The position numbers and the translations under genes are program-made. DNA of 51,137 nt, from assembly GCA_016204335.1 (NCBI GenBank), contig JACQKU010000004.1, positions 1-51,137 on the forward strand. The letters run 5' to 3'. Position 1 is the first letter of the stretch. Each line of letters opens with the position of its first letter. This stretch comes from Candidatus Liptonbacteria bacterium. Its GTDB lineage: Bacteria; Patescibacteriota; Minisyncoccia; UBA6257; 2-01-FULL-56-20. Below the pieces are notes generated by a model that was given only the letters and a program-made list of their open reading frames with translations, did not search any database and was not told the DNA's origin. Below are positions 3,223-27,906 of this stretch, piece by piece.

Positions 3223-3319
3223 GTCATTGCAAGCGAGCAGGGCGAGCGCGCAATCTTTAAAAATACCCTGAGATTGCTTCGCTTTCGCCGAGCCAGACGC
3301 GACTTCGGCTCGCAATGAC
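3223..3319. repeat. Palindromic element, GTCATTGC...GCAATGAC family (copy 1)
   Basis: Terminal IR plus internal GCAATC/GATTGC; homologous copies at 5419-5502 and 18132-18193. Confidence 0.85.
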
Positions 3320-3356
3320 GAGTACTGGTTGACGAAAGTGCCGACTATACAGTATT

Positions 3357-3902
3357 ATGGACAAACGAAAAGGTGAAGTTTCGGTTCCACGAGCCATTAT
3401 TAGACCAAAAACCAACAATCAAATAACCGCGCCGGAACTCCGGGTTATCGGAGTAGAGGGCGAGAATCTCGGCGTGCTGTCGCTCGCGCAGGCGCTTGCC
3501 CTGGTCAGGCCCGGAGAAGGGATTGATTTGATTGAGATAGCGCCTGGCGCCAAACCGCCGGTAGCGCGGCTGATGAGCTTTGATAAATACCGCTATCTGC
3601 AGGAAAAGCTGGAAAAGAAGGCGAGGAGAGCGCAAAAAACAGCCGGAATAAAACAAATCCAGATAAGCGCGCGTGCCGCTCAAAACGACCTTATGATAAA
3701 AGTCCGGCAGCTCGAAAAATTTTTGGGCGAAGGTCACCGTGTGGAAATTATGCTTCGGTTGCGGGGGCGTGAACGGTTCGATAAAGGAAGAGCGCATCAA
3801 AAGCTGAAGGAATTCCTTCAAATGATAACGACCGAATATAAAATGTTGGCCGAACCGAAATTCGGCGGACGGGGCATGATGACCCACATAGCAAAAAAAT
3901 GA
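3357..3902 (+). CDS. infC: Translation initiation factor IF-3
   Basis: NNQITAPELRVIG, PPVARLMSFDKYRY, LRGRE motifs; precedes rpmI-rplT. Confidence 0.95.
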   Translation: MDKRKGEVSVPRAIIRPKTNNQITAPELRVIGVEGENLGVLSLAQALALVRPGEGIDLIEIAPGAKPPVARLMSFDKYRYLQEKLEKKARRAQKTAGIKQIQISARAAQNDLMIKVRQLEKFLGEGHRVEIMLRLRGRERFDKGRAHQKLKEFLQMITTEYKMLAEPKFGGRGMMTHIAKK

Positions 3903-4087
3903 AAAAGAGTTTATCAAATCGGATAAAAATCACACGGACCGGAAAGCTTACGCGGAGGTCAATGGCCGTAAATCATTTCCGCACCAGGAAATCCACCGCC
4001 AATATCCGCCAAAAAAAGAAACAGAGAGGGCTGAATTATCCAAGAAAAGAACTTTTGAGTTATCTCGCTTCCGGATTGCTTAAATAA
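3899..4087 (+). CDS. rpmI: 50S ribosomal protein L35
   Basis: RIKITRTGK motif; between infC and rplT. Confidence 0.88.
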   Translation: MKKSLSNRIKITRTGKLTRRSMAVNHFRTRKSTANIRQKKKQRGLNYPRKELLSYLASGLLK

Positions 4088-4098
4088 TTTTAAAAATC

Positions 4099-4237
4099 CA
4101 TGCCCGGTAGTGAAAATTCGACTGCTTTACTGTATAATCAAATAAAACAGTCGCAAAATACCCCTTTAATGCAACGCGAAAAATCAAAAGGTTAAAATTA
4201 TTACTAAAACTTAGTCGAATTTCTACTGCCGGGCATG
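4099..4237. repeat. MITE-like element with ~25-bp terminal inverted repeats; right end overlaps rplT start
   Basis: CATGCCCGGTAGTGAAAATTCGACT ... AGTCGAATTTCTACTGCCGGGCATG; same family at 4572-4629 and 29279-29401. Confidence 0.8.
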
Positions 4238-4582
4238 CCAAGAGTAAAACGAGGAAAAATCGCCCACAAGAAACGGGAACGCCTTCTTAAACATACCAAA
4301 GGTTTCCGCTGGGGCAGAAAATCGAAAGAACGCGCCGCCAAAGAAGCGCTTCTGCACGCCCTGCCGCGGATGTTTCGCGGCCGCAAAGAAAAAAAGCGGG
4401 TATTCCGCCGGCTTTGGAACGTGAAAATAAACGCCGCGAGCCGCGCAAACGATATGAGTTACAGCCGTCTGATTCCCGCGCTAAAAAGTAAGAATATTCT
4501 GCTCGACAGAAAAATCCTTGCCGACCTAGCGGAGCACGAACCGGCGGTGTTTGCAAAAATCGTGGAGTTTGCCAGGCAGTAG
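4235..4582 (+). CDS. rplT: 50S ribosomal protein L20
   Basis: MPRVKRG start, KKRVFRRLWNVKINAA, LDRKILADLA. Confidence 0.97.
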   Translation: MPRVKRGKIAHKKRERLLKHTKGFRWGRKSKERAAKEALLHALPRMFRGRKEKKRVFRRLWNVKINAASRANDMSYSRLIPALKSKNILLDRKILADLAEHEPAVFAKIVEFARQ

Positions 4583-4629
4583 AACTGCGACTGCAACAGA
4601 AAACGATGAGTCGCAGTTTCACTGCCTGG
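4572..4629. repeat. Short member of the CCAGGCAGT inverted-repeat family; contains the rplT stop codon
   Basis: CCAGGCAGTAGAACTGCGACT ... AGTCGCAGTTTCACTGCCTGG. Confidence 0.8.
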
Positions 4630-4663
4630 TTTGTGAAGACGTAAAACCGGCGGACAATCGAAT

Positions 4664-4981
4664 TTACCCTGCGATTTTAGCTCCTTCTTTTTCAAGCAGG
4701 GCTCTTTTTTTATCTGCGCCCCGGTTATAGCCGCCCAATTTCCCGCCGGACCGGATAACGCGGTGGCAGGGAATTTTCGGGTCAAAATTCTTTTTCAAAA
4801 TATTCCCTACGGCGCGATATGCCTTCGGTCTGCCGGCCCGGCGCGCAACTTCTTTGTAAGTAAAAACTTTTCCTTTCGGTATCAACCTCGCAACTGACAG
4901 AACCTTATTTCGAAAACTCTTATTTCCGCGTAAGTCAGCGTACATGTCCGCGTCGTTCCGCGCTTCGAAGAATGGTGTCAT
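4664..4981 (-). CDS. MGMT/Ogt-family methylated-DNA-protein-cysteine methyltransferase (DNA-binding domain only)
   Basis: IPKGKVFTY, RAVG, IPCHRV active-site motif; start may be 4945. Confidence 0.88.
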   Translation of the reverse strand: MTPFFEARNDADMYADLRGNKSFRNKVLSVARLIPKGKVFTYKEVARRAGRPKAYRAVGNILKKNFDPKIPCHRVIRSGGKLGGYNRGADKKRALLEKEGAKIAG

Positions 4982-5396
4982 AAGCTTGTTTTAAAATTTT
5001 CTGGTTTGCGCGGTACCTGTGTAGAATCCGCATCGCTTCCGGATATAAAAACCACGCGTATCCCTGATGTTCCGATGAAACTTTAACAAATGGCGTTCTC
5101 GTTTCGGCAAGATAGAAAATCACGATTTTGAAAACCGGCTGGCCCGCGTGCCTGAAAAAATACTTTTGGTACGCCTTGAAATTCTGGTTCATCCGCAAAT
5201 CCCCTTCGCCAAGTCCGGTTTCTTCCTTTGTTTCGCGGAACGCGGCGCGAAGCGATTTTTCCTCCGACTCGATTTTCCCTTTCGGAAAATTCCAGTAATT
5301 GTGTCCGTGGTACAGAATCAAAAATTTCGGCCCTTCGACGGTGCGGCGATACACGATGAATCCAGCCGATATTTCTTTTCTTGGTTTTTTTTCCAT
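4935..5396 (-). CDS. NUDIX hydrolase (Ap4A hydrolase-like)
   Basis: Nudix box GKIESEEKSLRAAFRETKEETGL, SSEHQGYAW; start reassigned to MEKKP at 5396, with TATAAT just upstream. Confidence 0.88.
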   Translation of the reverse strand: MEKKPRKEISAGFIVYRRTVEGPKFLILYHGHNYWNFPKGKIESEEKSLRAAFRETKEETGLGEGDLRMNQNFKAYQKYFFRHAGQPVFKIVIFYLAETRTPFVKVSSEHQGYAWFLYPEAMRILHRYRANQKILKQAYDTILRSAERRGHVR

Positions 5397-5418
5397 TATT
5401 ATTTGATTATACCTTACC

Positions 5419-5502
5419 GTCATTGCGAGGAGCAAAGCGACGAAGCAATCCAGAGATTGCCGCGCTTTCGCCGAGTCTGACTCGGCTTCGGCTCGCAATG
5501 AC
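5419..5502. repeat. Palindromic element, GTCATTGCGAG...CTCGCAATGAC family (copy 2)
   Basis: 11-bp terminal IR with internal hairpins. Confidence 0.85.
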
Positions 5503-5509
5503 GAAATTT

Positions 5510-7249
5510 TTACTTTTTTAAGTATCCAAACATCTTCTGTAACGGCCGCGCGTTGATGATATCGTTTCTGGTCGCCCATCCCCTTCGCGCCTGGGCAATA
5601 CCAAATTCAAGAAGCAAGAACTGCGCCGCGGCGTGAGCATCGGAATCGATAGCCATCTTAACGCCGGCTTCCACGCATTTTCTTATGTGTTCGTCTTTCA
5701 AATCGAGGCGTTCGGAAGCGTTTATTTCGAGAATCGTGCCGGTTTTTTTGGCGCACGCGATAATTTCATCGATATCCAAGTCGTACGCTTCCCGTTTCTG
5801 AACAATTCTGCCGGTCGGATGAAACAATATGTCAACGTGCGGATTCGCCATCGCGCGCTTTATCCGCTCGGTCTGCTCGGCTCTCGGCAAATTGAAATTG
5901 GAATGTACGGACACTCCGACAACGTCGAGTTTCGCGAGAATTTCGTCGGGCAAATCGAGCGAACCGTCTTTCAAAATATCGCATTCCGTGCCTTTCAGAA
6001 TTGTTATTTTTCCGCCGAATTTTTTGTTTAGCCGGTCTATCTCGCCCATTTGTTTCAAAATTCTTTTTTCGTCTAGCCCGTGCGTCATCGCGAGCCGTTT
6101 TGTATGGTCTGTAATGGCAATATATTTCAAGCCGCTCTTGATTGCTTCGTTCGCCATATTTTCAATTGAATCACTGCCGTCTGTCCAGTCGGTCTGCGTC
6201 TGCAAATCGCCTTGCAGGTCGTCATATCCGATGATTTTCGGCAGTTGATGCTTTTGAGCGAGTTCGATTTCGCCCGTGTTCTCCCGCATTTCCGGCTCGA
6301 TATAGTCCATTCCAAGCGTCCGATACAATTCCTCTTCAGTTTTTCCGGCTATCATTTTTCCTTGTCGCTTGTCACTTGTCGCATTGAACAGCCCGTATTC
6401 ATTCAACTTCCACCCTTTCTCAATCGCAATTTTCCGGAGCGCAACGTTGTGGTCTTTCGAACCGGTAAAATAATTGAGCGCCGCGCCGTACGATTCTTCC
6501 GGAACCACCCGTAAATCTACATCAAGCCCGGAAGAAAATTTGACCGCTGATTTTGTTTCGCCTTTAGCAATTATCCGGGCAACCTCCGGCATACTGGTAA
6601 AATAATCCATTACCTTTTCGGGCTTTTTCGAAATCGCGAGTATATCAATGTCGCCGATAGTTTCTTTTCTGCGCCGGACTGAACCCGCAACCACCGCTTT
6701 TTCAACTTCCGGAAGCTTCGCAAGCCGCTTTTCGAGCATTCTTGCAAGCGGCAAAGCGTTTCCGAGCAAAAATCTGCCTTCTCCCTTTTTGAGAAACCCG
6801 ATGCTCGCGAGAATATTCTCCTCGGTTTTTTTGCCGAAACCCTCGAGATTTCCGATTTTTCCGGCTTTCGCGGCTTTTTCCAGGTCAGCAAGATTTTTGA
6901 CGCCGAGTTTTTGATACAATTTTATGACTGACTTGGGGCCCAATCCCTCAATTCTCGTTAATTCTTGCAAATCAACCGGCGTTTTCTTTTTGAGTGAATC
7001 GTAGTATTTCAACCGGCCGGTTTTCAAAAGTTCTTCTATTTTTTCCGCGATTGAAACGCCGACGCCCGGAATTTCTTCGAGCGCTTTCAGTCCGCCCTTT
7101 TTATAAATATCTCCGGCTTCTTCTTCGAGCTCCTCGATGGTCAGGGCAACTTTCTCATAAGCGCGCGGCTTGAACGGAACATTCTGCATCGCGAGATATT
7201 CCCCGATTTCGTAAAGAATTTTCGCTATTTCGGAATTGGAGATGCTCAT
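5510..7249 (-). CDS. polX: DNA polymerase X family / PHP domain protein
   Basis: HhH motifs, GSVRR, GDIDIL, FTGS, LNEYGLF; C-terminal PHP (TDH, HPTGR, DSDAH). Confidence 0.95.
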   Translation of the reverse strand: MSISNSEIAKILYEIGEYLAMQNVPFKPRAYEKVALTIEELEEEAGDIYKKGGLKALEEIPGVGVSIAEKIEELLKTGRLKYYDSLKKKTPVDLQELTRIEGLGPKSVIKLYQKLGVKNLADLEKAAKAGKIGNLEGFGKKTEENILASIGFLKKGEGRFLLGNALPLARMLEKRLAKLPEVEKAVVAGSVRRRKETIGDIDILAISKKPEKVMDYFTSMPEVARIIAKGETKSAVKFSSGLDVDLRVVPEESYGAALNYFTGSKDHNVALRKIAIEKGWKLNEYGLFNATSDKRQGKMIAGKTEEELYRTLGMDYIEPEMRENTGEIELAQKHQLPKIIGYDDLQGDLQTQTDWTDGSDSIENMANEAIKSGLKYIAITDHTKRLAMTHGLDEKRILKQMGEIDRLNKKFGGKITILKGTECDILKDGSLDLPDEILAKLDVVGVSVHSNFNLPRAEQTERIKRAMANPHVDILFHPTGRIVQKREAYDLDIDEIIACAKKTGTILEINASERLDLKDEHIRKCVEAGVKMAIDSDAHAAAQFLLLEFGIAQARRGWATRNDIINARPLQKMFGYLKK

Positions 7250-7262
7250 TTCGAGTTCTCGG

Positions 7263-7808
7263 CTAATTCTTCATGCAGTTCTCTGCCGCTTGCGCAATTT
7301 TCTCGTTCCAGTTATGGCCGGCATCCACCTCAATAAGGTTAATGCCGTTTTGTTTAATAATCTCCGCCGATTTTTCATCGCAGAAATAATAATCGTTCTT
7401 ACCCCTTATAATAACAATCTTTTCTTTCGGAATTCTTCGGATAATAGCGAGCGTATCCATATTTAAAAGTTCCAAAACTTTCTGAAGTACGTAAGGCCAA
7501 TCTTGCATTGGAATCAATTTGTGTTTGTATCCCTCCTTTGTATCTTCAAAAATAAAGAATTTAATCCAACTCCAGAAAAATGCCATGGTAGTTCTTTTTC
7601 TGATAATGGGATTAACAAGGATATATGTGCCGCCACGAATAGAATTTTGTTGAGAAAGAATAAAGCTCGCTCCGGCGCTATGGCCGATATAGTAGTCGGC
7701 AACCGGAATATCCTGCGGGAAAGGTTTTAGCCAAATATCCACGCCGTCATATTTCAGGTAGTTCTTTACGTACTGAAATGAGGCCGGGAAAATTAAAACT
7801 TTCTTCAT
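7263..7808 (-). CDS. Putative alpha/beta hydrolase, AT-rich
   Basis: GHSAG nucleophile elbow, GKND, AGH; lower GC than neighbours. Confidence 0.6.
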   Translation of the reverse strand: MKKVLIFPASFQYVKNYLKYDGVDIWLKPFPQDIPVADYYIGHSAGASFILSQQNSIRGGTYILVNPIIRKRTTMAFFWSWIKFFIFEDTKEGYKHKLIPMQDWPYVLQKVLELLNMDTLAIIRRIPKEKIVIIRGKNDYYFCDEKSAEIIKQNGINLIEVDAGHNWNEKIAQAAENCMKN

Positions 7809-7825
7809 TGTTCAAGTTTTTTTAG

Positions 7826-10378
7826 CTATTCTTCAACCGGAGTAAATTGAAATGCTCCGCCTTGAAACAAAACTCTTACTCTGTCGCCGCGGCTGATTTC
7901 CTTTGAAAGCAATTTCCCCGCGAGCGGAGCGCGAAGATGTTCCTCTATGGCGCGGCGGAGCGGCCGCGCGCCGAACGCGGGCTCGTAGCCGATTCTTGCG
8001 ATTTCCCGCACCGCTGACGGGTCGAATTCAAGCTCAATTCCCTGTTCGCCCAGAAGATTGGCAAAATCATTCAAATTAAGTCCGGCGATTTTTCCGACAT
8101 CCGCCGGTGAAAGGTCTTTGAAAACGACAATTTTCGAAAAACGATTGAGGAGCTCCGGCTTAAACACGTCAACGAGCTTCTTTTTGAGATACTCGGCGAT
8201 ATCGGTCATCTTCTCGCCTTTCGAAAGCGCTTCGTTAATAATGTCCGAATGAGCGTTCGATGTCGCGATAATAATAGTATTTTGAAAATCAACCGTGCGG
8301 CTCAAGTTGTCGGTCAAACGGCCGTCGTCAAATACCTGCAAGAAAAGATTGAGGATGTCCGGAAACGCTTTTTCGAATTCGTCGAGAAGAATCAAACTGT
8401 ATGGCCTATTGAGCACTGCCTCGGTCAGAGCCCCGCTTATCCTGCCGTCCGGGGAGCCGATGAACCGGTAAAAACTTTCTTTGTCCTGATACTCGGTCAT
8501 ATCAAATCGGACCATCATACTCTCCGAGCCGAACTGAAACCGGGCAAGAATTTTCGCGAGTTCGGTTTTGCCGACGCCCGTCGGCCCCACGAAGAGAAAC
8601 GAGGCAATCGGGCCGCCTTTCCGCGCAAGACCGCTTCGATACTCGCGGAGCGCCGTGCTCACCGCCTTTACCGCCTCTTCCTGATTAATGAAGTGTTGAT
8701 GGATGATATCTTCCAAATGGAGCAATGTCTCGGCTTCGCTTCCGCTTGCTTCGTGAATCGGCACGTTCACTTTTTCTTCGGCCGCCGCAATCACTTCATC
8801 CGGCACCAAATGGCGTTTTTGCCTGCGCTCGGCCATAACCAGCGCGTCTTTCAAAAGTTCATCGGCGCTCGATGGCAGACGTTTCCCTGAAAAATATTTT
8901 TTAGCGAGCGCGACAGCGGTTTTTATCGCGGCAAAACCGATTGTGATTCCGGTTTTTTTCTCGAAAAGAATGCTCTCGTAGACAAGAATTTTTTGGGCGT
9001 CAACCTCGCTTATTTCGTCAACCCTGATAATTTCAAATATTCCGACAATATCGCTTCTCGGCTCCATAAATTCTTTGAATTCTCTCGGGTATGTCGCGCC
9101 GACAACGGGAAAAATATTATTTTTTATCACCGGCATCAAAGCGTCGGCGGCAGATAGGTAATGATTGCCCGATGTCTTCACAAGATTATGAATGTCAGGA
9201 ATATACAAAATGATGTTGCCTGCCGTAAAAATTTCTTCGACGATGCGTTTCAGCCGGGCTTGCAACTCTTCCGGCGAAGCGCCGGCGACCAAACTTGCTA
9301 TTTCAAGACCGACAAGCCGTTTGTCGAAAATCGCCGGCGGCACTTCGTCCTTTATGATGCTGCGCGCAAGATGGGCGATGATGGTTTCTTTGCCGATTCC
9401 TTCTTCGCCGACGAGGAGAGCGTTAGGGTCGAGAGGCCGTGAAAGCGTATCGACAAGGCGGCGATACTCTTTCTCGTGCCCGATTAGAAACCCAGCCTCT
9501 CCCCCACGGGCGAGGTCGGTAAAATCGACGCTGAATTTATCGAGCAAAGGCGTGGCTCTGCTTGTCCAGGCGCGGTTCATAATTCTGTGCCTGATGCGGC
9601 GGTTTGATTCAAACGAGAAGCCGCCGAGCGCCGGCGGAAGGCGAAACCTGAATGATTTCCCGAAAGAACTTAAAATAAGCGCCAGTTCGAGGTCGCCCGC
9701 GTCAATCGAAAACACGTTAAAAAGCCGGTTAACAAATTCATCGTTCGCCGAAAAAAGTCCCGGGAAAAAATCCGCCGGCTTGATAAATTTTCGGTTATTT
9801 GCGATGCTCCGCTCGGCTACCCGCGACACAAACGCTTCCGCTTTTTGAAGAAGAAGAATTTTTTTATCGACAGAAGTTTTGTTATCCCGGCTGGTTTCAA
9901 GAAAATCCTCTGTCTTCTGTTTGAATTCCTCGGGCTTGATGTCGAGTCGGCGCAAACTATCCTGAATTTCGCGTAAATCAAGCAACTCACGGATTATTTC
10001 GAGAAAAAAATTCCTTTTGGTAATACTGCTTTTATCAAACGCTTTTTCAAGAACCGAGTAGGCGCCCGGCGAAATATATTCCGAAAGATTTACGCGCCCA
10101 TCATGAGGCATTTCAGAAAACGGTCTGTCTCCCTCCCGCCAGTGAATCGCCCTGTCTCCGAGAAAAAGAAAGAGTAAAATACCGAGAGCGCGCAGCCACT
10201 CGATATCCGAAAGAATAAACGTGAACGCGCCCGCAATAACGACCAGGTAGCCGATGTAGCCCGATATTCTTACGAACAAACGCCCGGCGATGGTCATTTT
10301 GAACCGCGGCTCGTCAAAATAGAATCGATTGCCCGAAGGCACTATCAAAGATTCGTTTTTATTTTGCTCTAATGACAT
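7826..10378 (-). CDS. ClpA/ClpB-like double AAA+ ATPase with N-terminal TM helices
   Basis: NBD1 GEEGIGKE (degenerate), NBD2 GPTGVGKT and LLDEFEK, GARPLRR; hydrophobic N-terminal segments; start set at MSLEQ. Confidence 0.88.
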   Translation of the reverse strand: MSLEQNKNESLIVPSGNRFYFDEPRFKMTIAGRLFVRISGYIGYLVVIAGAFTFILSDIEWLRALGILLFLFLGDRAIHWREGDRPFSEMPHDGRVNLSEYISPGAYSVLEKAFDKSSITKRNFFLEIIRELLDLREIQDSLRRLDIKPEEFKQKTEDFLETSRDNKTSVDKKILLLQKAEAFVSRVAERSIANNRKFIKPADFFPGLFSANDEFVNRLFNVFSIDAGDLELALILSSFGKSFRFRLPPALGGFSFESNRRIRHRIMNRAWTSRATPLLDKFSVDFTDLARGGEAGFLIGHEKEYRRLVDTLSRPLDPNALLVGEEGIGKETIIAHLARSIIKDEVPPAIFDKRLVGLEIASLVAGASPEELQARLKRIVEEIFTAGNIILYIPDIHNLVKTSGNHYLSAADALMPVIKNNIFPVVGATYPREFKEFMEPRSDIVGIFEIIRVDEISEVDAQKILVYESILFEKKTGITIGFAAIKTAVALAKKYFSGKRLPSSADELLKDALVMAERRQKRHLVPDEVIAAAEEKVNVPIHEASGSEAETLLHLEDIIHQHFINQEEAVKAVSTALREYRSGLARKGGPIASFLFVGPTGVGKTELAKILARFQFGSESMMVRFDMTEYQDKESFYRFIGSPDGRISGALTEAVLNRPYSLILLDEFEKAFPDILNLFLQVFDDGRLTDNLSRTVDFQNTIIIATSNAHSDIINEALSKGEKMTDIAEYLKKKLVDVFKPELLNRFSKIVVFKDLSPADVGKIAGLNLNDFANLLGEQGIELEFDPSAVREIARIGYEPAFGARPLRRAIEEHLRAPLAGKLLSKEISRGDRVRVLFQGGAFQFTPVEE

Positions 10379-19436: not shown

Positions 19437-19559
19437 AAATTATTACTTTAGTTATTGAGATATTGGGGTATTAAGTTATTAGGCGACTACTAACTAAATA
19501 ACCTAATTACTCACCAACTTAATAACTCATTTACCCAATTACTTAATATCAATAATATC

Positions 19560-21416
19560 ATGTTTAAATTGATTTCCAATTTTGTCCCCCAAGGCGACCA
19601 GCCGGACGCCATCGAAAAGCTGTCCGAAGGGGTGAGCCACGGCCTCGAACATCAGGTTCTTTTGGGCATTACCGGAAGCGGCAAAACGTTTACGATGGCG
19701 AAAATGATTGAACAGCTTCACCTGCCGACGCTCGTCATCTCGCCGAACAAAATCCTCGCGGCCCAGCTATACCAGGAATTCAAAAGTTTTTTCCCGGAAA
19801 ACGCGGTTCATTATTTCGTTTCCTACTATGACTACTACCAGCCCGAGGCGTATCTGCCTTCGACCGACACGTACATCGCGAAAGACGCGCGCATCAATAA
19901 GGACATCGACCGGCTCCGGCACGCGGCGCTCCAGGCGGTGCTCGAACGCCGCGACACCATTGTCATCGCTTCGGTTTCCTGCATTTACGGCGTCGGCGAC
20001 CCGGCGGAATATCAGAAAGCGTGTCTCGCCCTGAAACTCGGACAGAAAATAAGTCCGGCTGACGCGGCGCGGCACCTTAATTTTTTGCAGTACGAACGTG
20101 TAGAGCGCGAGCCGGAGCATATCGGCCAGTTCAAACTCGAAAAAAACGAACTTGTGGTTTATACAATCGCCGGAGAAAGAATATTATTGACATTTTCCGC
20201 CAAAGGCGGATCCGCCTCGGGCGGAAAAAATCAACTTGTTTCAATTTTCAACTCCCACAAAAACGAGTCGATACAGTCGCTCAAAATATTTCCGGCGAAA
20301 TTTTGGGTGACGCCGCGCGACCGGCTCCGCATCGCCATTGCGAACATCAAAAAAGAACTGTCCGAGCGCGTTGAGGACTTGCAGGCCGCGAACAAATTCG
20401 CCGAAGCCGAACGGCTTACCAAGCGCGTTTCGTTCGACCTCGAACGGCTGAAAAAAGACGGGTATATGAACGGAATCGAAAACTACTCGCGGCATCTCTC
20501 ATTCCGAGAGCAGGGCGAACCGCCGATGACCATTCTCGATTATTTCCCAAAACCGTTTTTGCTATTTATCGACGAATCGCACATCGGCGTGCCCCAACTG
20601 AACGGGATGTACGCGGGCGACCGGAGGCGCAAGCAAACGCTTGTTGATTACGGCTTCCGGCTTCCGTCCGCTCTCGACAACCGCCCGCTCCGGTTCGAGG
20701 AATTCAAAAAGAAAATCGGCCAGACGATTTATGTTTCGGCGACGCCCGGCGACTATGAAATGCAAATTGTAAAAGAAACGGGGCAGGTCGCGGAGCAAAT
20801 CATCAGGCCCACCGGCGTGCTCGACCCTGAAATCATCATCAGGCCGGCGCAGACGCAGATAAAAAGTTTGCTCGCGGAAATAAAAAAGCGGACGCTCAAA
20901 AACGAGCGGGTTTTGGCGCTGACGCTCACGAAACGCCAGTCCGAAGACCTGACCGAATTTCTTTTGAGCCGCGGCATCAAAGCCGAATATATCCATTCGG
21001 AAATAAAAACGCTGAAGCGGCCCGAAATTCTCCACAGGTTGCGGAGCGGCGAAGTTGACGTGCTCGTCGGCATCAATCTTTTGCGCGAAGGTTTGGATTT
21101 GCCGGAAGTTTCGCTCGTGGCAATTTTGAACGCCGACCGCGAAGGATTTTTGCGGAATCACCGGAGCTTGATGCAGATGGCGGGCCGCGCGGCGCGCTCC
21201 ACCAACGGCCAGGTGATTTTCTACGCCGACCAGATTACCGAATCCATCAGAAAAGCGGTCGGCGAAACCAACCGCCGCCGGAAAGTCCAGCTCGCGTTCA
21301 ACAAAAAATTCTCATTGGAGCCGAAGACAATCAAAAAGCCGCTCACGGTCGCGAGTTTGCTCGAAATCGCGGGGTTTCGGAGCGAAAACGACGCGCAGAT
21401 TGCGGACGAGGATTGA
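19560..21416 (+). CDS. uvrB: Excinuclease ABC subunit B
   Basis: GITGSGKT, YYDYYQPEAY beta-hairpin, DESH, GINLLREGLDLPEV, GRAAR; no obvious C-terminal UVR coiled coil. Confidence 0.96.
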   Translation: MFKLISNFVPQGDQPDAIEKLSEGVSHGLEHQVLLGITGSGKTFTMAKMIEQLHLPTLVISPNKILAAQLYQEFKSFFPENAVHYFVSYYDYYQPEAYLPSTDTYIAKDARINKDIDRLRHAALQAVLERRDTIVIASVSCIYGVGDPAEYQKACLALKLGQKISPADAARHLNFLQYERVEREPEHIGQFKLEKNELVVYTIAGERILLTFSAKGGSASGGKNQLVSIFNSHKNESIQSLKIFPAKFWVTPRDRLRIAIANIKKELSERVEDLQAANKFAEAERLTKRVSFDLERLKKDGYMNGIENYSRHLSFREQGEPPMTILDYFPKPFLLFIDESHIGVPQLNGMYAGDRRRKQTLVDYGFRLPSALDNRPLRFEEFKKKIGQTIYVSATPGDYEMQIVKETGQVAEQIIRPTGVLDPEIIIRPAQTQIKSLLAEIKKRTLKNERVLALTLTKRQSEDLTEFLLSRGIKAEYIHSEIKTLKRPEILHRLRSGEVDVLVGINLLREGLDLPEVSLVAILNADREGFLRNHRSLMQMAGRAARSTNGQVIFYADQITESIRKAVGETNRRRKVQLAFNKKFSLEPKTIKKPLTVASLLEIAGFRSENDAQIADED

Positions 21417-21490
21417 TCCCGTGAGAAGTCCGATGCGAAGACGCATCGGCAGTCCAGACGGCGCTGTCGGGATTTACTTCTAAATTGAGC

Positions 21491-21518
21491 TTGACAGGTA
21501 TAGCAATTTTGCTATACT
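21491..21518 (+). promoter_or_regulatory. Sigma70 promoter with overlapping operator palindrome for the TA operon
   Basis: TTGACA-16-TATACT; GTATAGCAA-TT-TTGCTATAC at 21498-21517. Confidence 0.75.
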
Positions 21519-21557
21519 GGAAAATGAAAGGTCGGCGGCCGGAATACAATAAACAAT

Positions 21558-21857
21558 GTGAATATACAGATACTCAGCAATGTCTCGAAGTTTCTTGAAG
21601 GACTCTCAAGAGAGGACGACGCCAAAATAGCCGCGCATTTGAAATCGCTTGCAATGGATCAGACCGACGGGCTTGCGATAAAACCTCTCAAAGGGAAAAT
21701 AAAAGAACTAATCGTGAGGCAATACCGAATCGTGTTCTTCAAAATAGGCGATAGCGGATATGTCGTGGATGTTTTCAGAAAACAGAGCAAGAAAACCCCG
21801 AAGCGAACCATCGAGCGAGCCGAGAGAATCTATCGGGACATTAATGCAAAGCAATAA
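21558..21857 (+). CDS. RelE/HigB-like (Gp49-type) toxin
   Basis: KPLKGKIKELIV..YRIVFF..FRKQSKKTP; upstream of an HTH antitoxin; GTG start. Confidence 0.82.
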   Translation: MNIQILSNVSKFLEGLSREDDAKIAAHLKSLAMDQTDGLAIKPLKGKIKELIVRQYRIVFFKIGDSGYVVDVFRKQSKKTPKRTIERAERIYRDINAKQ

Positions 21858-21886
21858 CTGCCAGTCGGGTAATAACAAAAAATGAG

Positions 21887-22204
21887 ATGAAAAAAATAAA
21901 CGCTGCAAAATATAATTTTACTTCGCTTGATACGATCATCAGAAAAAAACTCGCCAATCGGCGATTCCGCGCGTCGTTCACGGAAGAAACAAACAGATTG
22001 CAATTGGCACGCGAAATCAGAGGATTACGCGCGAAGAGGAATATGACCCAGAAAGAAGTCGCGGCGGAGGCGAATATGCCCCAATCCGTTGTCGCGCGTA
22101 TAGAATCAGGAACGCACAGCGTCTCGATTGCCACGCTTCATAAAATCGCGGGGGTCTTCGAAAAACGTGTCGGCTTGGTGGGACAAACACAAGACCGCAG
22201 ATAA
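21887..22204 (+). CDS. XRE-family HTH antitoxin (HigA-like)
   Basis: MTQKEVA..MPQSVVARIESG HTH. Confidence 0.85.
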   Translation: MKKINAAKYNFTSLDTIIRKKLANRRFRASFTEETNRLQLAREIRGLRAKRNMTQKEVAAEANMPQSVVARIESGTHSVSIATLHKIAGVFEKRVGLVGQTQDRR

Positions 22205-22327
22205 CCGCTCACGGTCGCGAGTTTGCTCGAAATCGCGGGGTTTCGGAAAAACGAAGAGGATATTGATACGTCGTTGGTTGAAGAAGAATAGTTACTCTGA
22301 TAAAATATATGAAACTAAAGATACGAT

Positions 22328-23593
22328 ATGTCATCAAAAAAATTTATATTTCAAGATAAAAAAATAAAGATTGATTCCGATACTACAAAAATACTGGATG
22401 ATTTCTTTGACACAATCCCTACTCTGGAAAAAGAGTTAGAGAAAACTCTGTTGGTTTTATTTGATTCAAAAACTAAAGTTTTTTATACACTCTGTAATAT
22501 AAAAAAGAAAAATTTTGTGGGTTTAGTAGATAAAAATGCGGTCATTGACCCTGATCTCCAGGAAGATTACAAGTTAAATAGAGACCTTCAGCCGAACAAT
22601 CCAGATTTCAAGGAAATGCAAAATGACGCAAGTAAGGGCAGGCAATTTACTGATATTGTAGTCGAATACAATAAACAATATAAACCAGATAGGCCCTTAA
22701 AAATCCTGGGTGGCCAGCACAGGGCAGAGGCGATAGAACAAAAATCTCCAGATGAATCAGTACATGGATTGAGAATTTATTTCAACCTAGATAAAGACAA
22801 AAGAGCTGAAATCGCTATAATTTCTAACACGAATATCGATATTTCTCCTGACCTGCTTGATAGAATGGAGGAGCAAAGACTTGATCCACCAAATAAGCTT
22901 AGAGATTTTGCATACGCAATAGGCTTGCTTGAAAAAGGTAAAGATTTTGCTGATTCAAGAGTTAACCCTAATAATTTACCTACGGTAAGGATGGCTAGAA
23001 CATTTATAGTTAATTTTTATAAGGGAAGGGAATACGAAGAAGATTATGATAGCGATGCATTAGAAGGAATGATTTGTTCTTCATCTGGCATGGATTCTGA
23101 TTACGAAAAAATTTATAAAATTAAAAACTTTGCTGAGGATGAAAAATTAGTAGGAGCAGGAAAAAAATTTATAGAATTACATAAAAAACAATATAAAATT
23201 GCCTCGAATAGAGAGGGACTTAAACAAGTAAAAGCCCACAGGATGAAAGCAATGGCTATAGCAGTTGTTTCTGCGTGGTCTTACGTAAGTGGGTTGTTAC
23301 AACGTGATTCGAAAAGATTAAGTAAATTTTACGATTTACCAAAAAACTCTGGCAAGAATGACCCGCTGAATGCAAAAGCGATGACAGCTTTTCAGCTTAA
23401 AGGCGTTGACCCCGAAGCATATCGTGGGCTTGGCACAAGAACAGACGCAAAAGAACGTGGCAGATTAATAACAATTTTCTTAGAATACTCTAAGGCCGCA
23501 AGTGGAGACGAAATAAATCCAACTTTATTAGACCGAGCAGTTAGATATTATCAAGGCAATAAAATGAGAAAAGAGGGTGATAAATATAAATGA
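22328..23593 (+). CDS. DGQHR/DndB-ParB-like domain protein (GGQHR variant), AT-rich
   Basis: LNRDL, ILGGQHRAEAI and AEIAIISNTN spacing matches the DGQHR pattern; uncharacterised C-terminal region. Confidence 0.65.
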   Translation: MSSKKFIFQDKKIKIDSDTTKILDDFFDTIPTLEKELEKTLLVLFDSKTKVFYTLCNIKKKNFVGLVDKNAVIDPDLQEDYKLNRDLQPNNPDFKEMQNDASKGRQFTDIVVEYNKQYKPDRPLKILGGQHRAEAIEQKSPDESVHGLRIYFNLDKDKRAEIAIISNTNIDISPDLLDRMEEQRLDPPNKLRDFAYAIGLLEKGKDFADSRVNPNNLPTVRMARTFIVNFYKGREYEEDYDSDALEGMICSSSGMDSDYEKIYKIKNFAEDEKLVGAGKKFIELHKKQYKIASNREGLKQVKAHRMKAMAIAVVSAWSYVSGLLQRDSKRLSKFYDLPKNSGKNDPLNAKAMTAFQLKGVDPEAYRGLGTRTDAKERGRLITIFLEYSKAASGDEINPTLLDRAVRYYQGNKMRKEGDKYK

Positions 23594-24135
23594 AATCCTC
23601 TAGTTATTCATTGATAGATCATATAAAACTGCTCCTCGATTCAAACGAATGGTATCTTGAAAAGATTAGAACGAAAAATACTCTCCCATTCCAGGAAGAG
23701 ATTTTTTGTATGGCGGTCATATCTAATGCTTGGTCGGCATTAGAAGGATACATTAATTTCATAGCTTCTTTGGCAAAATTCGCTAGAAAACTTGAATCTC
23801 ACGAAATGGCCTTCCTTGAGGAAATGGATTGGAAATTAAACGACAAGGGGAAATTTGAAAAACAGACAGCCTATCAGTCAACTACTAAAAAGTTCCTTTT
23901 TTTGTTAGAAAGGTTTTCTTCTGTAAAAATAGTTAAATTTAATAAAAGTAGAATCTGGAACGATATGAAAGTATCAGAAAAAATAAGAAATGGCCTCATA
24001 CATCCAAAAGAAACTATCGTCTTTAAGGATTTTAATCTTGAAACAGCAGAAATGACACATAAGACCGCCAAACTAGCTATTCTTTTTTTGGAGAAAAAAG
24101 TTTTGAAATCAAAACACTCGAGTTTCCAAAGTTAA
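23590..24135 (+). CDS. Putative HEPN-domain ribonuclease
   Basis: N-terminal helix AWSALEGYIN and RNGLIH (Rx4H); ATGA overlap with the upstream gene. Confidence 0.65.
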   Translation: MKSSSYSLIDHIKLLLDSNEWYLEKIRTKNTLPFQEEIFCMAVISNAWSALEGYINFIASLAKFARKLESHEMAFLEEMDWKLNDKGKFEKQTAYQSTTKKFLFLLERFSSVKIVKFNKSRIWNDMKVSEKIRNGLIHPKETIVFKDFNLETAEMTHKTAKLAILFLEKKVLKSKHSSFQS

Positions 24136-24179
24136 GACCTTGTAAATTTTCCGGTTCCTGCTATACTACTCTCACTTTC

Positions 24180-24434
24180 ATGCCCATCACGCAATCAGCC
24201 AAAAAAGCGCTTCGGCAGAATATCCGCCGGCGGGTTCAGAACGTCAGGAAAATGGACGCGGTGAAAAGCGCCGTCAAGAAGTACAAAAAACTGGCTTCGG
24301 AGAAAAAAACCGCCGAGGCGGAAAAACAGCTCTCGCTCGTTTATAAAGCGATTGATAAGGCGGTTAAAACAAATTCACTCAATCGCAATAAGGGCAGCCG
24401 GATGAAATCCCGGCTCGCGAAGCTCGCACGATAA
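24180..24434 (+). CDS. rpsT: 30S ribosomal protein S20
   Basis: MPITQSAKKALRQ, IDKAVK, NKGSRMKSRL. Confidence 0.96.
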   Translation: MPITQSAKKALRQNIRRRVQNVRKMDAVKSAVKKYKKLASEKKTAEAEKQLSLVYKAIDKAVKTNSLNRNKGSRMKSRLAKLAR

Positions 24435-24446
24435 CCTTGACCTTGA

Positions 24447-24869
24447 CTATGACAGTGACGATGATTTTGACGCTGGCGAGGATAGGTAGCCGGTAAATTT
24501 CCTTAATCGTTTCGCAAGGCTTCTTGCTTCTTCCAAAAATTCCGAGTGTTGCACCTCCGAAATATAGCCATCATCAAGCGCACAATCCAAACAAGAAACT
24601 ACCTCGTCCAACGAGCAATGCGCTCTATTGATGTAAAGCCGCATATCTTTGTCCGTACTTTTGTTGGTGCTCTCCGCAATATTTAAAACAATGGAGTTCA
24701 ACGCCCGTTTCGTCTGGTCGGTCAAAGCATATATTTCGCTTTTCGGATAGCTTTTCAAAATTTCGTTAATTTTATTCCTAAATAATCTAGAATCTGTGTA
24801 AACATCCCATTCTCTAAACCTGAAGCCGTACTCGTCAACTTTTTTCCTCTCTGTCATAGTCATTGTCAT
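24447..24869 (-). CDS. Four helix bundle protein (23S rRNA intervening-sequence protein family)
   Basis: YPKSEIYALTDQTKRALNSIVLNIAE, SLDEV; ends made of hexamer repeats. Confidence 0.85.
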   Translation of the reverse strand: MTMTMTERKKVDEYGFRFREWDVYTDSRLFRNKINEILKSYPKSEIYALTDQTKRALNSIVLNIAESTNKSTDKDMRLYINRAHCSLDEVVSCLDCALDDGYISEVQHSEFLEEARSLAKRLRKFTGYLSSPASKSSSLS

Positions 24870-24872
24870 AGA

Positions 24873-25685
24873 TCACAGTACTACATCCAGCAACGCTTCC
24901 TCATAATCCAACTTTCCAGATTTCACCAATATGTCATATGTTGCGAGCCGTCCAAGCTTCTCGGGCCACTGGTAGATAATCATATTGAAAATCTTCGGGA
25001 GCGGCTCGTTCATCGAGAAAAGTTTTTCGAGCGATGCCATCCTGTTCTCGAGCTGATATCCTTTCAAGCCCTGTAAAAGGCTGAAATAATTCGGCGCGAT
25101 TTCAAGGCCGAGTTTTTCGAGTTCCCGCGCGCCGAGCGGCTGGTCTTGATTTTTGATAACCGGACTCAAAGAGCTTATTTTCTGCAACTCGGTGACCAAT
25201 CGCCACGCATCGTTTTCATACGCCCTCGAAAGAAATTCCAGAGCGGGAACTCCGAGTTTTACTCCACATTCTCCGGCTTTTGCGGCGATGAATTCTTCCC
25301 ATTCTTTTCCTTCGAGATAGTCGAATTTTTGGACGTCGACTTTCGCGGACTTTTTGGAAAGAAATCCGAATCCCTCGGTCGGCTTCTTTTCGGAGAGCAA
25401 AACGGTCATGCCGCTTTGTTTCGCGGCTTGTTTCAGTTCTTCCGCGAGTTTTTTGCTCGCCGACTCTTCGGCTCCCGCGTAGAAAGCATTTTCAAGAATC
25501 GCGAACTTGTCCGGCGCGAAGAGCGACTGGTTTTTTATAAAATCCTGAAACCGGAGAAAATTTTCTTTATCGGCAAGGTCGAAAGAATCGATGCTTACGC
25601 CGCGCTTCCCCCGGAACTCCGCGATGATGCTCCTTTTTTTCTCTTCCCGGCGGTAATCGTCGGGACCGCATAAAAAAATCAGCAT
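24873..25685 (-). CDS. holA: DNA polymerase III delta subunit
   Basis: MLIFLCGPDDY, QSLFA, LVTELQKI, DILVKSG. Confidence 0.75.
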   Translation of the reverse strand: MLIFLCGPDDYRREEKKRSIIAEFRGKRGVSIDSFDLADKENFLRFQDFIKNQSLFAPDKFAILENAFYAGAEESASKKLAEELKQAAKQSGMTVLLSEKKPTEGFGFLSKKSAKVDVQKFDYLEGKEWEEFIAAKAGECGVKLGVPALEFLSRAYENDAWRLVTELQKISSLSPVIKNQDQPLGARELEKLGLEIAPNYFSLLQGLKGYQLENRMASLEKLFSMNEPLPKIFNMIIYQWPEKLGRLATYDILVKSGKLDYEEALLDVVL

Positions 25686-25779
25686 TTTTTAAATTTCTAG
25701 TATCTAAACTCTAAACAATATCAAAACTCCAAATTCAAATCTTTGGCAGGAGCTAAAAAAACGAATGGTACTCGCAAGA

Positions 25780-26016
25780 TTACGAAACCGCCACAAGGGT
25801 TTTCGTTCTGGGAGCGCGCAATAACGTGGACGCCCGCTTGAGAAATCCCGCTGCTTCGAGTATTTCCACGTAAACCGGAATCCCTTTTTTGCTGAAGTGA
25901 ACGACGACATTGCCCATTTCGGACGCGTAGTCAATCGGCGCTTTGCCGAGTTCAACGCGGAGCACGTCGGCTTCAGGTTCGTAGCTCATCGCGACTTTTT
26001 TATTTCCTTTTTTCAT
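25780..26016 (-). CDS. DUF2283-like protein (putative antitoxin)
   Basis: SYEPEADVLRV, GIPVYVEILEAA. Confidence 0.75.
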   Translation of the reverse strand: MKKGNKKVAMSYEPEADVLRVELGKAPIDYASEMGNVVVHFSKKGIPVYVEILEAAGFLKRASTLLRAPRTKTLVAVS

Positions 26017-26257
26017 ATTGGTTTTTTCTGCCGGGGTAAAACGTAATGACGACTTTGACGCCCAATTCTTCCTTATATACTACTCGCAGAACTCGCGCAT
26101 TGTCAAAATCGCGCTGGGCGATTCTGAGAGGCCGTCTTGAATCATCGATAAAATCGGGATTCTGGACGGCTTCGATTATGTCGGCCTTGGAAACGTAGAC
26201 CTTGTATTTCTCTAAAATCGCAAATTTTTCGAGTGCGTGCTTCGTGAAATGAATCAT
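26000..26257 (-). CDS. DUF4258-like protein (putative RelE-fold toxin)
   Basis: MIHFTKHALEK..LRVVY..VVITFYP; start at 26257 overlaps the pyrG stop (ATGA). Confidence 0.72.
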   Translation of the reverse strand: MIHFTKHALEKFAILEKYKVYVSKADIIEAVQNPDFIDDSRRPLRIAQRDFDNARVLRVVYKEELGVKVVITFYPGRKNQYEKRK

Positions 26258-27906
26258 TTTATGCCTTTTCTGGCAACAGCCGCCTTGACGAATTCCACGA
26301 ACAACGGATGTGGGCGGAACGGCCGCGATTTCAATTCCGGATGGAACTGGGTGCCGAGGAAAAACGGATGGACGCTCCGCGAGAGTTCCATTATTTCCAT
26401 AAGGCGCCGGTCCGGAGAAATGCCGGAAAACGCCATACCCTTCTTTTCGAGGCGTTCGGTGTATTTCGGATTTACTTCGTATCGGTGCCTGTGCCGCTCG
26501 GAAATACGGCTCGTGCCGTACGCTTTTTCCGCGACAGTGTCTTTTTTGAGCATCGCCGGATACGCGCCGAGCCGCATCGTGGCGCCGTAATTTTTCTCCG
26601 CCATATTCTTTTTCTGCTCCGGCATAATGTCGATGACCGGGTCCGGAGTTTTCGGATTGATTTCGGTTGTGTTCGCTTTTTTCAGGCCCAGGACGTCTCT
26701 CGCGAATTCGACGACTGCCAACTGCATGCCGTAGCACAATCCGAAATACGGAATTTTCTTTTCTCGGCAAAAGCGGATGGCGGCGATTTTCCCCTCAACC
26801 CCGCGGCTGCCGAATCCTCCCGGAACTATGATACCGTCATATTTTGAAAGTTCCTGAAGTTTTTTGGGATTTTTTTCATATTCTTCCGCATCAAGCCATT
26901 CTATCGCCGGCTTCCGCTTGAACACGTATGCCGCGTGCTTGATGGCTTCAAGCACCGAAATATACGAGTCCACGAGCACGAAATCCCCGGTGCCGAAGTA
27001 CTTGCCGACGATTCCGATGCGGACTGTCTCTTTGCTCCGCTTTATTGTTTCAGAAAGTTTCCGCCAGTCGCGGAGGTCGCGCACTCCCGGTTTCAATCCT
27101 AGTTTTCCCAAAATCCTTTCTCCAAGCGCGTCCTTTTCGAAGTTGATGGGAACCTCGTAGATGCTCTCGACGTTGGGCGCGGAAATAATGTCGCGCTCGT
27201 TCACGCTGCAGTTAAGCGAAATGGTCTGTTTTCTTTTCTGGTCAATCGCGACGTTCGCCCGCGCTATGACGATATCGGGCTGGAGGCCGGCGGAGTTCAA
27301 CGAGCGCACCGCGTATTGTGTCGGTTTGGATTTCAGTTCGGTTCCGCCGGCTGCCATCGCCGGAAGAAAACTGACGAGGATAAGAAGCGCGTCTCCCGGC
27401 TTTTTTATTTTCAGCATGCGCACCGCCTCGAGAAAAAGAATGTTCTGGTACTCTCCGACTGTTCCGCCGATTTCGGTGATGACTATGTCCGCCTTCGCTT
27501 TCCATGCGGCGCGCTCGATGCGGCTGATAACCTCGAGGGGAATGTGCGGCACGACTTCCACCTGTCTTCCTTTATATTCCAAATTTCTTTCTCTTTGAAT
27601 CACCGAAAGATACACGCTTCCGGTCGTCATATAGTTCGCGCCCGTGAGGTCGCGGTCCAGAAACCGTTCGTAATTGCCCATATCCTGGTCGCACTCGGTG
27701 CCGTCGTCCAAAACGAACACCTCGCCGTGCTCGGTCGGATTCATAGTGCCGGCGTCCACGTTCACGTAAGGGTCGATTTTTACCGCCGTGGTCTCAAATC
27801 CGCGCGACTGGAGAATTTTTCCGATGGAAGCCGATGCGACGCCCTTGCCCACGCCCGACATCACGCCACCTACAACGAAAATATATTTTGGACTCGCTTT
27901 TGACAT
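26254..27906 (-). CDS. pyrG: CTP synthase
   Basis: GGVMSGVGKG, KIDPY, HGEVFV, GLCYGMQ, RHRHRYE, QFHPE. Confidence 0.97.
   Translation of the reverse strand: MSKASPKYIFVVGGVMSGVGKGVASASIGKILQSRGFETTAVKIDPYVNVDAGTMNPTEHGEVFVLDDGTECDQDMGNYERFLDRDLTGANYMTTGSVYLSVIQRERNLEYKGRQVEVVPHIPLEVISRIERAAWKAKADIVITEIGGTVGEYQNILFLEAVRMLKIKKPGDALLILVSFLPAMAAGGTELKSKPTQYAVRSLNSAGLQPDIVIARANVAIDQKRKQTISLNCSVNERDIISAPNVESIYEVPINFEKDALGERILGKLGLKPGVRDLRDWRKLSETIKRSKETVRIGIVGKYFGTGDFVLVDSYISVLEAIKHAAYVFKRKPAIEWLDAEEYEKNPKKLQELSKYDGIIVPGGFGSRGVEGKIAAIRFCREKKIPYFGLCYGMQLAVVEFARDVLGLKKANTTEINPKTPDPVIDIMPEQKKNMAEKNYGATMRLGAYPAMLKKDTVAEKAYGTSRISERHRHRYEVNPKYTERLEKKGMAFSGISPDRRLMEIMELSRSVHPFFLGTQFHPELKSRPFRPHPLFVEFVKAAVARKGIK

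Follow-up and report, generated by a model that had tools for sequence, protein, structure and literature searches.

A conserved gene pair for a ParB-like GGQHR protein and a predicted HEPN RNase in a Candidatus Liptonbacteria genome: a candidate conflict module

We analysed a stretch of 51,137 nucleotides from a Candidatus Liptonbacteria bacterium (contig JACQKU010000004.1 of assembly GCA_016204335.1), hereafter the window, which carries two overlapping genes, here called g1 and g2, inserted between uvrB and rpsT. Comparison with relatives and structure prediction support g1 as a protein of the ParB/Srx superfamily, of the DGQHR/DndB/DUF262-like kind, and g2 as a HEPN-fold protein, predicted to be an RNase and distantly related to the RiboL-PSP-HEPN proteins. 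The two genes stand side by side in most loci where a g1 relative was found, and they move horizontally. With somewhat better than even confidence, we read g1-g2 as a conflict module in which a HEPN RNase would be gated by a nucleotide or by DNA, acting through abortive infection or in the manner of a toxin-antitoxin (TA) pair.

The gene pair as a unit

A first-pass annotation made from the letters of the window had described a markedly AT-rich two-gene operon with an ATGA overlap, placed between uvrB with its TA cassette and rpsT, and this description holds in all its parts. The overlap of the g1 stop with the g2 start, which would allow translational coupling, is seen both in the open reading frames (ORFs) and in the sequence itself, the placement agrees with the flanking ORFs and their Pfam matches (Table 1), and the GC content of 500-nucleotide windows is 0.326-0.380 over the insert (22250-24249) versus 0.508-0.554 over uvrB (19500-21499). 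The motifs read at that stage (LNRDL, ILGGQHRAEAI and AEIAIISNTN in g1, AWSALEGYIN and RNGLIH in g2) are all present in the translations. A purine-rich GAGGGTG lies about 10 nucleotides upstream of the g2 start.

To follow the pair beyond the window we used a set of 30 genome loci from a wide range of phyla, bacterial as well as archaeal, and four IMG/VR viral contigs, all with a g1 relative. In 23 of the 30 genome loci and in all four viral ones (27 of 34 in total), the gene immediately downstream of g1, on the same strand, is a g2 relative, so the co-occurrence of homologous pairs is borne out. In each of the 24 full-length pairs from other loci, the spacing from g1 stop to g2 start is -29 to +5 bases. 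Pairwise identities of g1 and of g2 are correlated (r 0.92 over 25 pairs including that of the window, a value that none of 2000 Mantel permutations reached), with g2 diverging faster (mean identity 28% versus 42% for g1). This correlated divergence shows co-inheritance, not contact.

Seven genome loci are without g2. One (L027) lies at a contig edge, in another (L030, 5737-7117) g1 is a pseudogene broken by stops, with the motif GGQHL and no g2 after it, and in the remaining five (L005, L010, L011, L026 and L029) g1 is intact. An intact g1 lacking g2 in five of 30 genome loci indicates that it is able to function by itself or with different partners. The place of g2 in L005 is taken by a Dam-class methylase gene (7280-8119), together with a gene for a 195-amino-acid protein without known function. 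In L029 a gene for a baeRF-family, release-factor-like protein (3452-4885) adjoins g1, in L011 a convergent NYN RNase gene (7261-8097, minus strand), in L010 a gene for a 206-amino-acid protein without known function, and in L026 an alcohol-dehydrogenase-like gene. These neighbours hint at swappable g1 partners, some of them targeting RNA or translation. The reverse case is found in L021 (6001-7241), where g1 is frameshifted near residue 270-291 and g2 is intact.

g1 as a ParB-like GGQHR protein

At least 1366 relatives of g1 (E <= 1e-3) are present in a protein collection clustered at 90%; none of the best 120 is named for a function, and for one of these a Pfam domain, RHH_6, had been precomputed. 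A search of 1.84 billion representatives with the g1 profile gave 288 clusters at E <= 1e-3. Since many of the 150 clusters listed are short fragments, the g1 family appears compact. A search of PDB sequences with the family profile returned nothing.

In an alignment of 30 diverse members, the pentapeptide GGQHR is invariant (30 of 30), so the Gly that the first-pass annotation read in place of the motif Asp is a property of every aligned relative. Other invariant positions include N84-R85, P123-L-K, N167, I170, D175-L..D178-R179, Y365-R-G, R371 and G378-R379, with T168, N169, E376 and R377 nearly invariant. Half of the relatives (15 of 30, E <= 0.1, best 1.8e-5) matched the DGQHR model TIGR03187, 12 of 30 matched the DndB model PF14072 (best E 0.001), and one of 30 matched TIGR03233 (E 0.054). 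Look-alikes of g1 retrieved with a protein language model include a DndB cluster at 0.94.

The AlphaFold model of g1 is confident, with a predicted local distance difference test score (pLDDT) of 88.9 and a predicted template-modelling score (pTM) of 0.82. Seven of its ten best PDB matches belong to the ParB family of CTPases (among them Noc 7ol9, KorB 8qa9/8qa8, ParB 7bm8 with probability 0.97, and PadC 6ryk), and sulfiredoxin 3cyi stands at rank 50. Although all these matches are weak, together with the model they support the ParB/Srx fold proposed earlier. GGQHR occupies the position in the model where ParB has GxxR and sulfiredoxin GGCHR. In a library of viral structures, 12 proteins matched g1 at E <= 1e-3, aligned across 340-470 columns; five are named as GmrSD N-terminal (DUF262) or Noc-like 'occlusion' proteins, one as a 'putative nuclease', and six are unnamed. 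The matches to viral GmrSD_N proteins reach E 7e-5 with template-modelling (TM) scores of 0.42-0.47, and viral structures named AIPR or DndB match at E 1.2e-3 to 9e-3.

The motifs DGQQR, DGQHR and FG/SGCHR have been equated, and the DGQHR pentapeptide is described as nearly invariant in its own family (PMC4619093). The pair QR and the motif FxxxN are given as further marks of the DGQHR domain family in the same source. In g1 the invariant N84-R85 stands where the QR pair is expected, and the residue four before the SNTN Asn (N167 invariant, N169 at least 90%) is aliphatic, not Phe. In its letters GGQHR is nearer to the sulfiredoxin motif GGCHR (PMC4619093) than to DGQHR, so g1 may do chemistry on its partner or on a nucleotide signal, beyond DNA binding.

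g2 as a HEPN protein

The g2 of the window matched the Pfam family HEPN_RiboL-PSP (PF18735) at E 0.014 and 15.7 bits, below the gathering cut-off of 28.4, and the copy at locus L001 scored 21.9 bits. Among 29 g2 relatives, eight matched PF18735 at E <= 0.1 (best 1.1e-5), three matched HEPN_Apea weakly and three DUF3644. Of the 29, 28 show the pattern R[NDHQ]xxxH, the exception being L004, where the end of the motif is lost. The g2 model is confident (pLDDT 92.3, pTM 0.87), and in PDB it is most like the HEPN toxins from HEPN/MNT pairs, namely 7ae6_A (E 0.027, probability 1.00) and 5yep_C (target TM 0.62), followed by 6m6w, 2hsb and the HEPN domains of Csm6. The recurrent Rx4H motif and the likeness of the model to HEPN toxins thus support the HEPN identity first read from the motif.

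Other searches with g2 gave little. The family profile retrieved a peroxiredoxin alone from PDB sequences, at chance level (E 0.2), and PHROGs gave one match, to a family of unknown function (E 0.007). No fused form was found among 7564 candidates when the g2 alignment was compared with proteins of 344-2000 amino acids, which is weak evidence. In 401 genomes of the window's phylum, the g2 family was represented by the copy in the window and one marginal match (E 2.4e-4), a different gene for a HEPN-like protein of 134 amino acids without a DGQHR neighbour, which is uninformative about g2 without g1.

The public gene call places the g2 start at Met41, giving 141 amino acids. We prefer the form of 181 amino acids because relatives of 178-188 amino acids align across 93-98% of it, and because the first helix (residues 8-27) is modelled at a pLDDT of 94-97.

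The predicted complex and a model for the pair

Structure prediction supports binding of g1 to g2, mainly through the g1 C-terminal helix. The interface score ipSAE of the predicted complex was 0.67 (the median of runs at 0.00, 0.67 and 0.69), compared with 0.00 for the best control. Of 80 solved complexes, 58 attained the mark applied to this score, as did two of 110 mismatched pairs; these counts are only rough because our own alignments were used. Agreement in contacts between the runs was at least 0%, and the partner pLDDT at least 76. The predicted interface joins g1 residues 403-420, 239-242 and 358-362 with g2 residues 57-68, 107-111, 171-178 and 7-10.

In the model that we favour, g2 would be the effector, an endoribonuclease of the HEPN fold whose Rx4H site is intact, and g1 would be its partner and switch, with the invariant (N)R, GGQHR and SNTN..DLxDR motifs forming a nucleotide-binding pocket. 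In the resting cell, g1 would keep g2 inactive in a complex assembled via the g1 C-terminal helix. A signal sensed by the ParB-like module would then release or activate the RNase, candidate signals being foreign or unmodified DNA and nucleotide-pool changes in an infected cell. The RNase would cleave cellular or viral RNA and thereby arrest growth, either on infection, in which case the pair may serve defence, or on loss of the element. That the ParB-like protein controls the HEPN protein, as the first-pass annotation put it, is what we infer from the modelled complex. Its reading as a whole stands, in that both folds found structural matches, homologues of the two genes co-occur, and no named system was matched.

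Several results weigh against this gated-RNase model. The g1 of the window matched nothing in Pfam or NCBIfam (E <= 1, DGQHR/DndB models included), in PADLOC or in PHROGs, and a search of PADLOC-DB v2.0.0 returned no family at E <= 1 for either g1 or g2. The ParB-family and sulfiredoxin matches of the g1 model in PDB have E values of 0.075 to 0.76 and the PDB matches of the g2 model start at 0.027, with none at or below 1e-3 in either case. Three profile-profile comparisons gave nothing significant, although the small alignments compared make them weak evidence either way: hhalign of the g1 family with five true DndB-family proteins placed GGQHR on DGQHR without significance (probability 4.4%, E 0.009), the g1 family gave a probability of 0.2% with four DUF262 partners of canonical RiboL-PSP-HEPN genes, and the g2 family one of 2.4% with seven canonical PF18735 proteins, the RNxLIH stretch alone being aligned. 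One of the three complex runs scored 0.00, and the catalytic R133 and H138 are not named in the predicted interface. No g2 relative was found anywhere in the genomes of the five loci with an intact g1 and no g2. The frameshift in L021, if not an assembly error, means that g2 is tolerated without full-length g1, which counts against simple neutralisation. The neighbourhoods of the pair are made up of mobile elements and methylases and are not clear defence islands. Finally, no experimental test of such a ParB-like and HEPN pair was found in the literature searched, which lay mostly outside subscription journals.

A plain addiction module is, in our assessment, unlikely, and it overlaps with the model above since TA and abortive-infection roles are not mutually exclusive. 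In such a module g2 would be a constitutively toxic RNase and g1 a large antitoxin, binding g2 and repressing the operon by means of the ribbon-helix-helix extension that many relatives have, so that the pair would stabilise mobile elements and would not be antiviral. Type II TA pairs typically show this gene order, tight coupling and co-divergence, and the best fold matches of g2 are TA toxins. An N-terminal extension of at least 35 residues is indeed present in 18 of 30 g1 relatives and matches RHH_6, a ribbon-helix-helix DNA-binding domain, in four of 30 (best E 2.9e-4), but the g1 of the window is without it, and an antitoxin would have no need of some 420 amino acids with strictly invariant nucleotide-pocket motifs. 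The predicted binding (0.67 versus 0.00, with one run of three at 0.00 and a rough calibration) would suit this reading, as would the transposases and integrases adjoining the pair elsewhere and the other TA cassette in the window. The distribution of single genes cuts both ways: g1 occurs without g2 in five of 30 loci while g2 accompanies a broken g1 in L021 alone, yet it is in L021 that an intact g2 stands beside the frameshifted g1.

Mobility, neighbourhood and further alternatives

The g1 tree was built from 33 rows, with rows shorter than 381 amino acids omitted (L021, L030 and their fragments). It requires 18 changes of taxonomic label, compared with a mean of 18.3 for shuffled labels. 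A Cytophagia copy with 73% identity is the sister of the g1 of the window (support 100/99), a Nitrospirota copy comes next, and the three nest in a clade of 16 rows, mostly from DPANN and Methanoperedens archaea. All four copies from viruses group in a single clade. As the tree ignores taxonomy, the insertion site is empty in relatives, the GC content is low and none of 40 related genomes searched contains g1, the pair is horizontally mobile.

Besides g1 and g2, no gene family is common to more than four of the 34 loci, and the two small shared clusters are DDE transposases. Neighbours include DDE transposases (L005 and L007), a tyrosine integrase with an N6/N4 methylase (L003), a C5 methylase-Vsr fusion (L006) and, in the viral contigs L045 and L046, phage tail and baseplate (baseplate-hub) genes. 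In addition, the IMG/VR viral contig L044 carries two fusions of ParB_N with an N6/N4 DNA methylase (2722-5543) directly upstream of g1-g2. The idea that homologous pairs would be found in defence islands holds for the recurrent pairing itself, whereas clear islands were not seen. The lack of an adjacent dnd partner was read correctly; neither dndC (TIGR03183) nor dndD (TIGR03185) was found anywhere in the host genome, which is 93% complete. Assignment to a named system failed again here, as neither protein matched a PADLOC model and the matches among relatives are scattered (DpdB 1/30 and PDC-M64B 1/30 for g1, RTasHEPN 3/29 for g2). A tblastn search with g1 found no match in 50,697 GenBank phage records or in PLSDB plasmids, and the four viral g1-g2 pairs had no match in PHROGs.

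These neighbourhoods bear on two further alternatives. The pair could be an accessory or regulator of a DNA-modification system, with g1 acting beside a DNA-modifying enzyme as DndB (a regulator of phosphorothioation) or DpdB (an ATPase aiding base exchange) does, and g2 as a back-up effector. DGQHR/DndB are the nearest named families of g1, DpdB is weakly matched by one of 30 relatives, methylases adjoin the pair in L003, L006 and the viral L044, and a Dam-class methylase replaces g2 in L005. We nevertheless consider this role improbable given that no third family is shared by more than four of the 34 loci, that dndC and dndD were not found in the 93%-complete genome, and that the insert between the relic uvrB end and rpsT holds two genes only. 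It is scarcely likely, too, that g1-g2 is primarily a weapon of viruses, with which a phage or provirus would exclude superinfection or shut off host RNA, the chromosomal copies being provirus remnants: both genes are present in all four IMG/VR relatives, near baseplate-hub and tail genes or ParB_N-methylase fusions, and many viral proteins resemble g1 in structure, but the four viral copies make up a single clade of the 33-row tree, most loci show no phage genes, none lies beside the insert in the window, and GenBank phage records and PHROGs gave no match.

Insertion history and flanking genes

Assembled in 23 contigs, the host genome amounts to 700,911 bases and contains g1 once. In a relative of the same genus (G001) rpsT begins 26 bases past the uvrB stop and is followed by a holA-like gene on the opposite strand, and a genome of the same order (G025) has the same uvrB-rpsT order. 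The site being empty in both, positions 21417-24179 are extra DNA in this genome. A direct repeat of 50 nucleotides, 94% identical between its copies at 21332-21381 (inside the uvrB 3' end) and 22198-22247, flanks the TA cassette only. The second copy translates as an alternative UvrB C-terminus, PLTVASLLEIAGFRKNEEDIDTSLVEEE*. The g1 start lies 38 bases past the stop of this relic uvrB end, and g1-g2 occupy what was a short uvrB-rpsT spacer.

From this arrangement, the TA cassette seems to have integrated into the uvrB 3' end, bringing a replacement tail. As g1-g2 lie beyond the relic uvrB end and outside the repeat, they look like an insertion separate from that of the cassette, and two independent insertions at one hot spot probably took place. 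The TA cassette and g1-g2 were also considered as one island; this was dropped, since the repeat encloses the TA cassette alone and the GC content differs (0.42-0.48 for the cassette, lower for g1-g2).

In three additional groundwater runs from the same study, contigs show this arrangement too. No joint bypassing the insert was seen in contigs of runs X2, X3, X4 and X5 over 19500-25700, and the run contigs break at the 50-nucleotide repeat, as expected of a real repeat. Among the sequencing runs that contain the stretch, four groundwater runs from one study of which one may be its source, no RNA run is listed.

Table 1. Positions of g1, g2, their motifs and the flanking features in the window
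Feature	Position	Strand	Basis or remark
uvrB	19560-21416		Upstream flank of insert
Gp49/HigB-like gene	21558-21857		PF05973, E 3.4e-11; upstream of g1
HTH_3 gene	21887-22204		E 1.7e-12; upstream of g1
Relic uvrB 3' end	22198..22290	+	Second repeat copy and short tail; upstream boundary of g1-g2 insert
Promoter-like site before g1	22278..22306	+	TTGAAG, 17-nucleotide spacer, TAAAAT, TG preceding second hexamer; consensus match at 9/12 positions
g1	22328..23593	+	ORF, ATG start, 421 amino acids
GGQHR codons	22709..22723	+	Residues 128-132; strand end/helix start (E124-128, H130-139)
g1 C-terminal helix	23519..23587	+	About residues 398-420 (model helix H398-420); predicted g2 docking site
ATGA overlap	23590..23593	+	g1 stop/g2 start; ORFs and sequence read
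g2	23590..24135	+	ORF, ATG start, 181 amino acids
EGYIN codons	23743..23757	+	E52-N56; E52 invariant, N56 nearly; long second helix H33-62
RNGLIH codons	23986..24003	+	R133-H138, Rx4H HEPN catalytic motif; R133 invariant, H138 at least 90%
rpsT	24180-24434		Downstream of g2

Promoter-like consensus sites such as the one before g1 number 12 in the region, against 7.0 +/- 2.6 in shuffled sequence. Downstream, a gene for a 23S rRNA intervening sequence protein, a four-helix bundle (PF05635 E 1.8e-22, TIGR02436), lies at 24447-24869 on the minus strand between rpsT and the holA-like gene. It is not at that place in the same-genus relative and makes a third small insertion at the hot spot. Further on, at about 25780-26260 between the holA-like and CTP synthase genes, two small adjoining frames, 25780-26016 and the C-terminal part of the ORF at 26000-26770 (minus strand), may form another small TA-like pair, to judge from their translations.

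Significance

ParB-fold NTPases joined with DNases have an established role in defence (GmrSD, BrxU and SspE), and HEPN RNases often serve as suicide effectors. With two proteins in about 1.8 kb, g1-g2 is a compact case for how a ParB-like module could gate an RNase. Both models are confident, an interface is predicted, and the targets for point mutations are evident (GGQHR, Rx4H and the g1 C-terminal helix). The family spans both prokaryotic domains and viruses, and it is found in very small genomes such as this one of 0.70 Mb, where each retained gene is costly. If a defence role is true, it would add to the short list of systems known from DPANN archaea and small-genome groundwater bacteria. 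It is conceivable, though doubtful, that the pair represents an unrecognised class of immune switch in which a nucleotide-binding protein of the ParB/Srx fold, operated by a nucleotide or by DNA, gates a HEPN RNase that is a separate protein, and that the module passes freely among Bacteria, Archaea (DPANN and Methanoperedens included) and the viruses of both.

Comparison with known systems

With ApeA, HEC-08/DUF3644 and AbiD/F, g2 shares a HEPN Rx4-6H effector. Mutation of the Rx4-6H motif in HEC-08 abolishes phage defence, which depends on the motif His (10.1101/2024.01.29.577857). These proteins have their own sensor domains, whereas g2 consists of a HEPN domain alone and has an obligate neighbour.

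For HepT-MntA (HEPN/MNT, type VII TA), the HepT toxins (7ae6, 5yep and 6m6w) are the best solved look-alikes of g2, and both systems are two-gene modules of a nucleotide-using protein (predicted for g1) and a HEPN RNase. The partner in HepT-MntA is an MNT nucleotidyltransferase, whereas g1 has the ParB/Srx fold and is encoded first; no nucleotidyltransferase match was found in g1 and 29 relatives. The Tyr of RX4HXY is AMPylated in HepT. In g2, Pro-Lys follows the motif His instead of this Tyr.

In GmrSD, BrxU, SspE and HEC-06, as proposed for g1-g2, a nucleotide-dependent module of the ParB fold is linked with a nuclease as its effector, and the defence contexts are mobile. DGQQR mutations in the GmrSD-like HEC-06 abolish phage defence (10.1101/2024.01.29.577857). 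The effector of these systems is an HNH DNase joined to DUF262, in contrast to the separate predicted HEPN RNase g2. In a family search, g1, g2 and their relatives gave no match to HNH or DUF1524, and SspE chains are weak fold matches to g1.

The DndB/DGQHR family (TIGR03187 and PF14072) resembles g1 in the ParB/Srx fold, in the xGQHR motif at the same strand-helix junction and in the weak but recurrent model matches of its relatives. It differs in that g1 has Gly for the nearly invariant Asp and that the g1 of the window matches no model. Unlike Dnd systems, g1-g2 has no dnd or dpd genes nearby, and none were found in the genome. DndB has been described as a ParB-like domain fused to a HEPN domain by Makarova et al. 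2013 (PMC3632139), and DpdB as a ParB-like ATPase (PMC12839542). The HEPN domain is thus said to be fused in DndB, whereas the HEPN partner of g1 is a separate gene. We also considered g1-g2 as a split DndB and dropped this, g1 alone being longer than the DndB-family proteins fetched (360-383 amino acids).

The nearest precedent is the operon of ParB and RiboL-PSP-HEPN. Table 1 of Anantharaman et al. 2013 has an entry 'Ribo L-PSP-HEPN ... operon with ParB', made in silico (PMC3710099). In the phylum of locus L001, nine of 167 genomes have a canonical PF18735 gene, and in the three best-scoring of these nine canonical loci (L054-L056) a DGQQR (DUF262-type) gene for about 400 amino acids lies directly upstream of it. 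The plan is that of g1-g2, a ParB-fold gene for about 400 amino acids followed by an Rx4H HEPN gene for about 180. The canonical partner is of the DGQQR/DUF262 type, whereas g1 has GGQHR and is nearest to DGQHR/DndB, and the families are not detectably alike by hidden Markov model or profile-profile comparison, in which the alignments were small. The first-pass annotation had called the system undescribed. This holds for the family, which is not named in the literature searched, and not for the generic pairing of ParB with RiboL-PSP-HEPN, which has been in print since 2013 (PMC3710099), so the term needs qualifying. g1-g2 is a divergent, unnamed variant, at the family level, of the ParB and RiboL-PSP-HEPN pairing that was predicted in silico.

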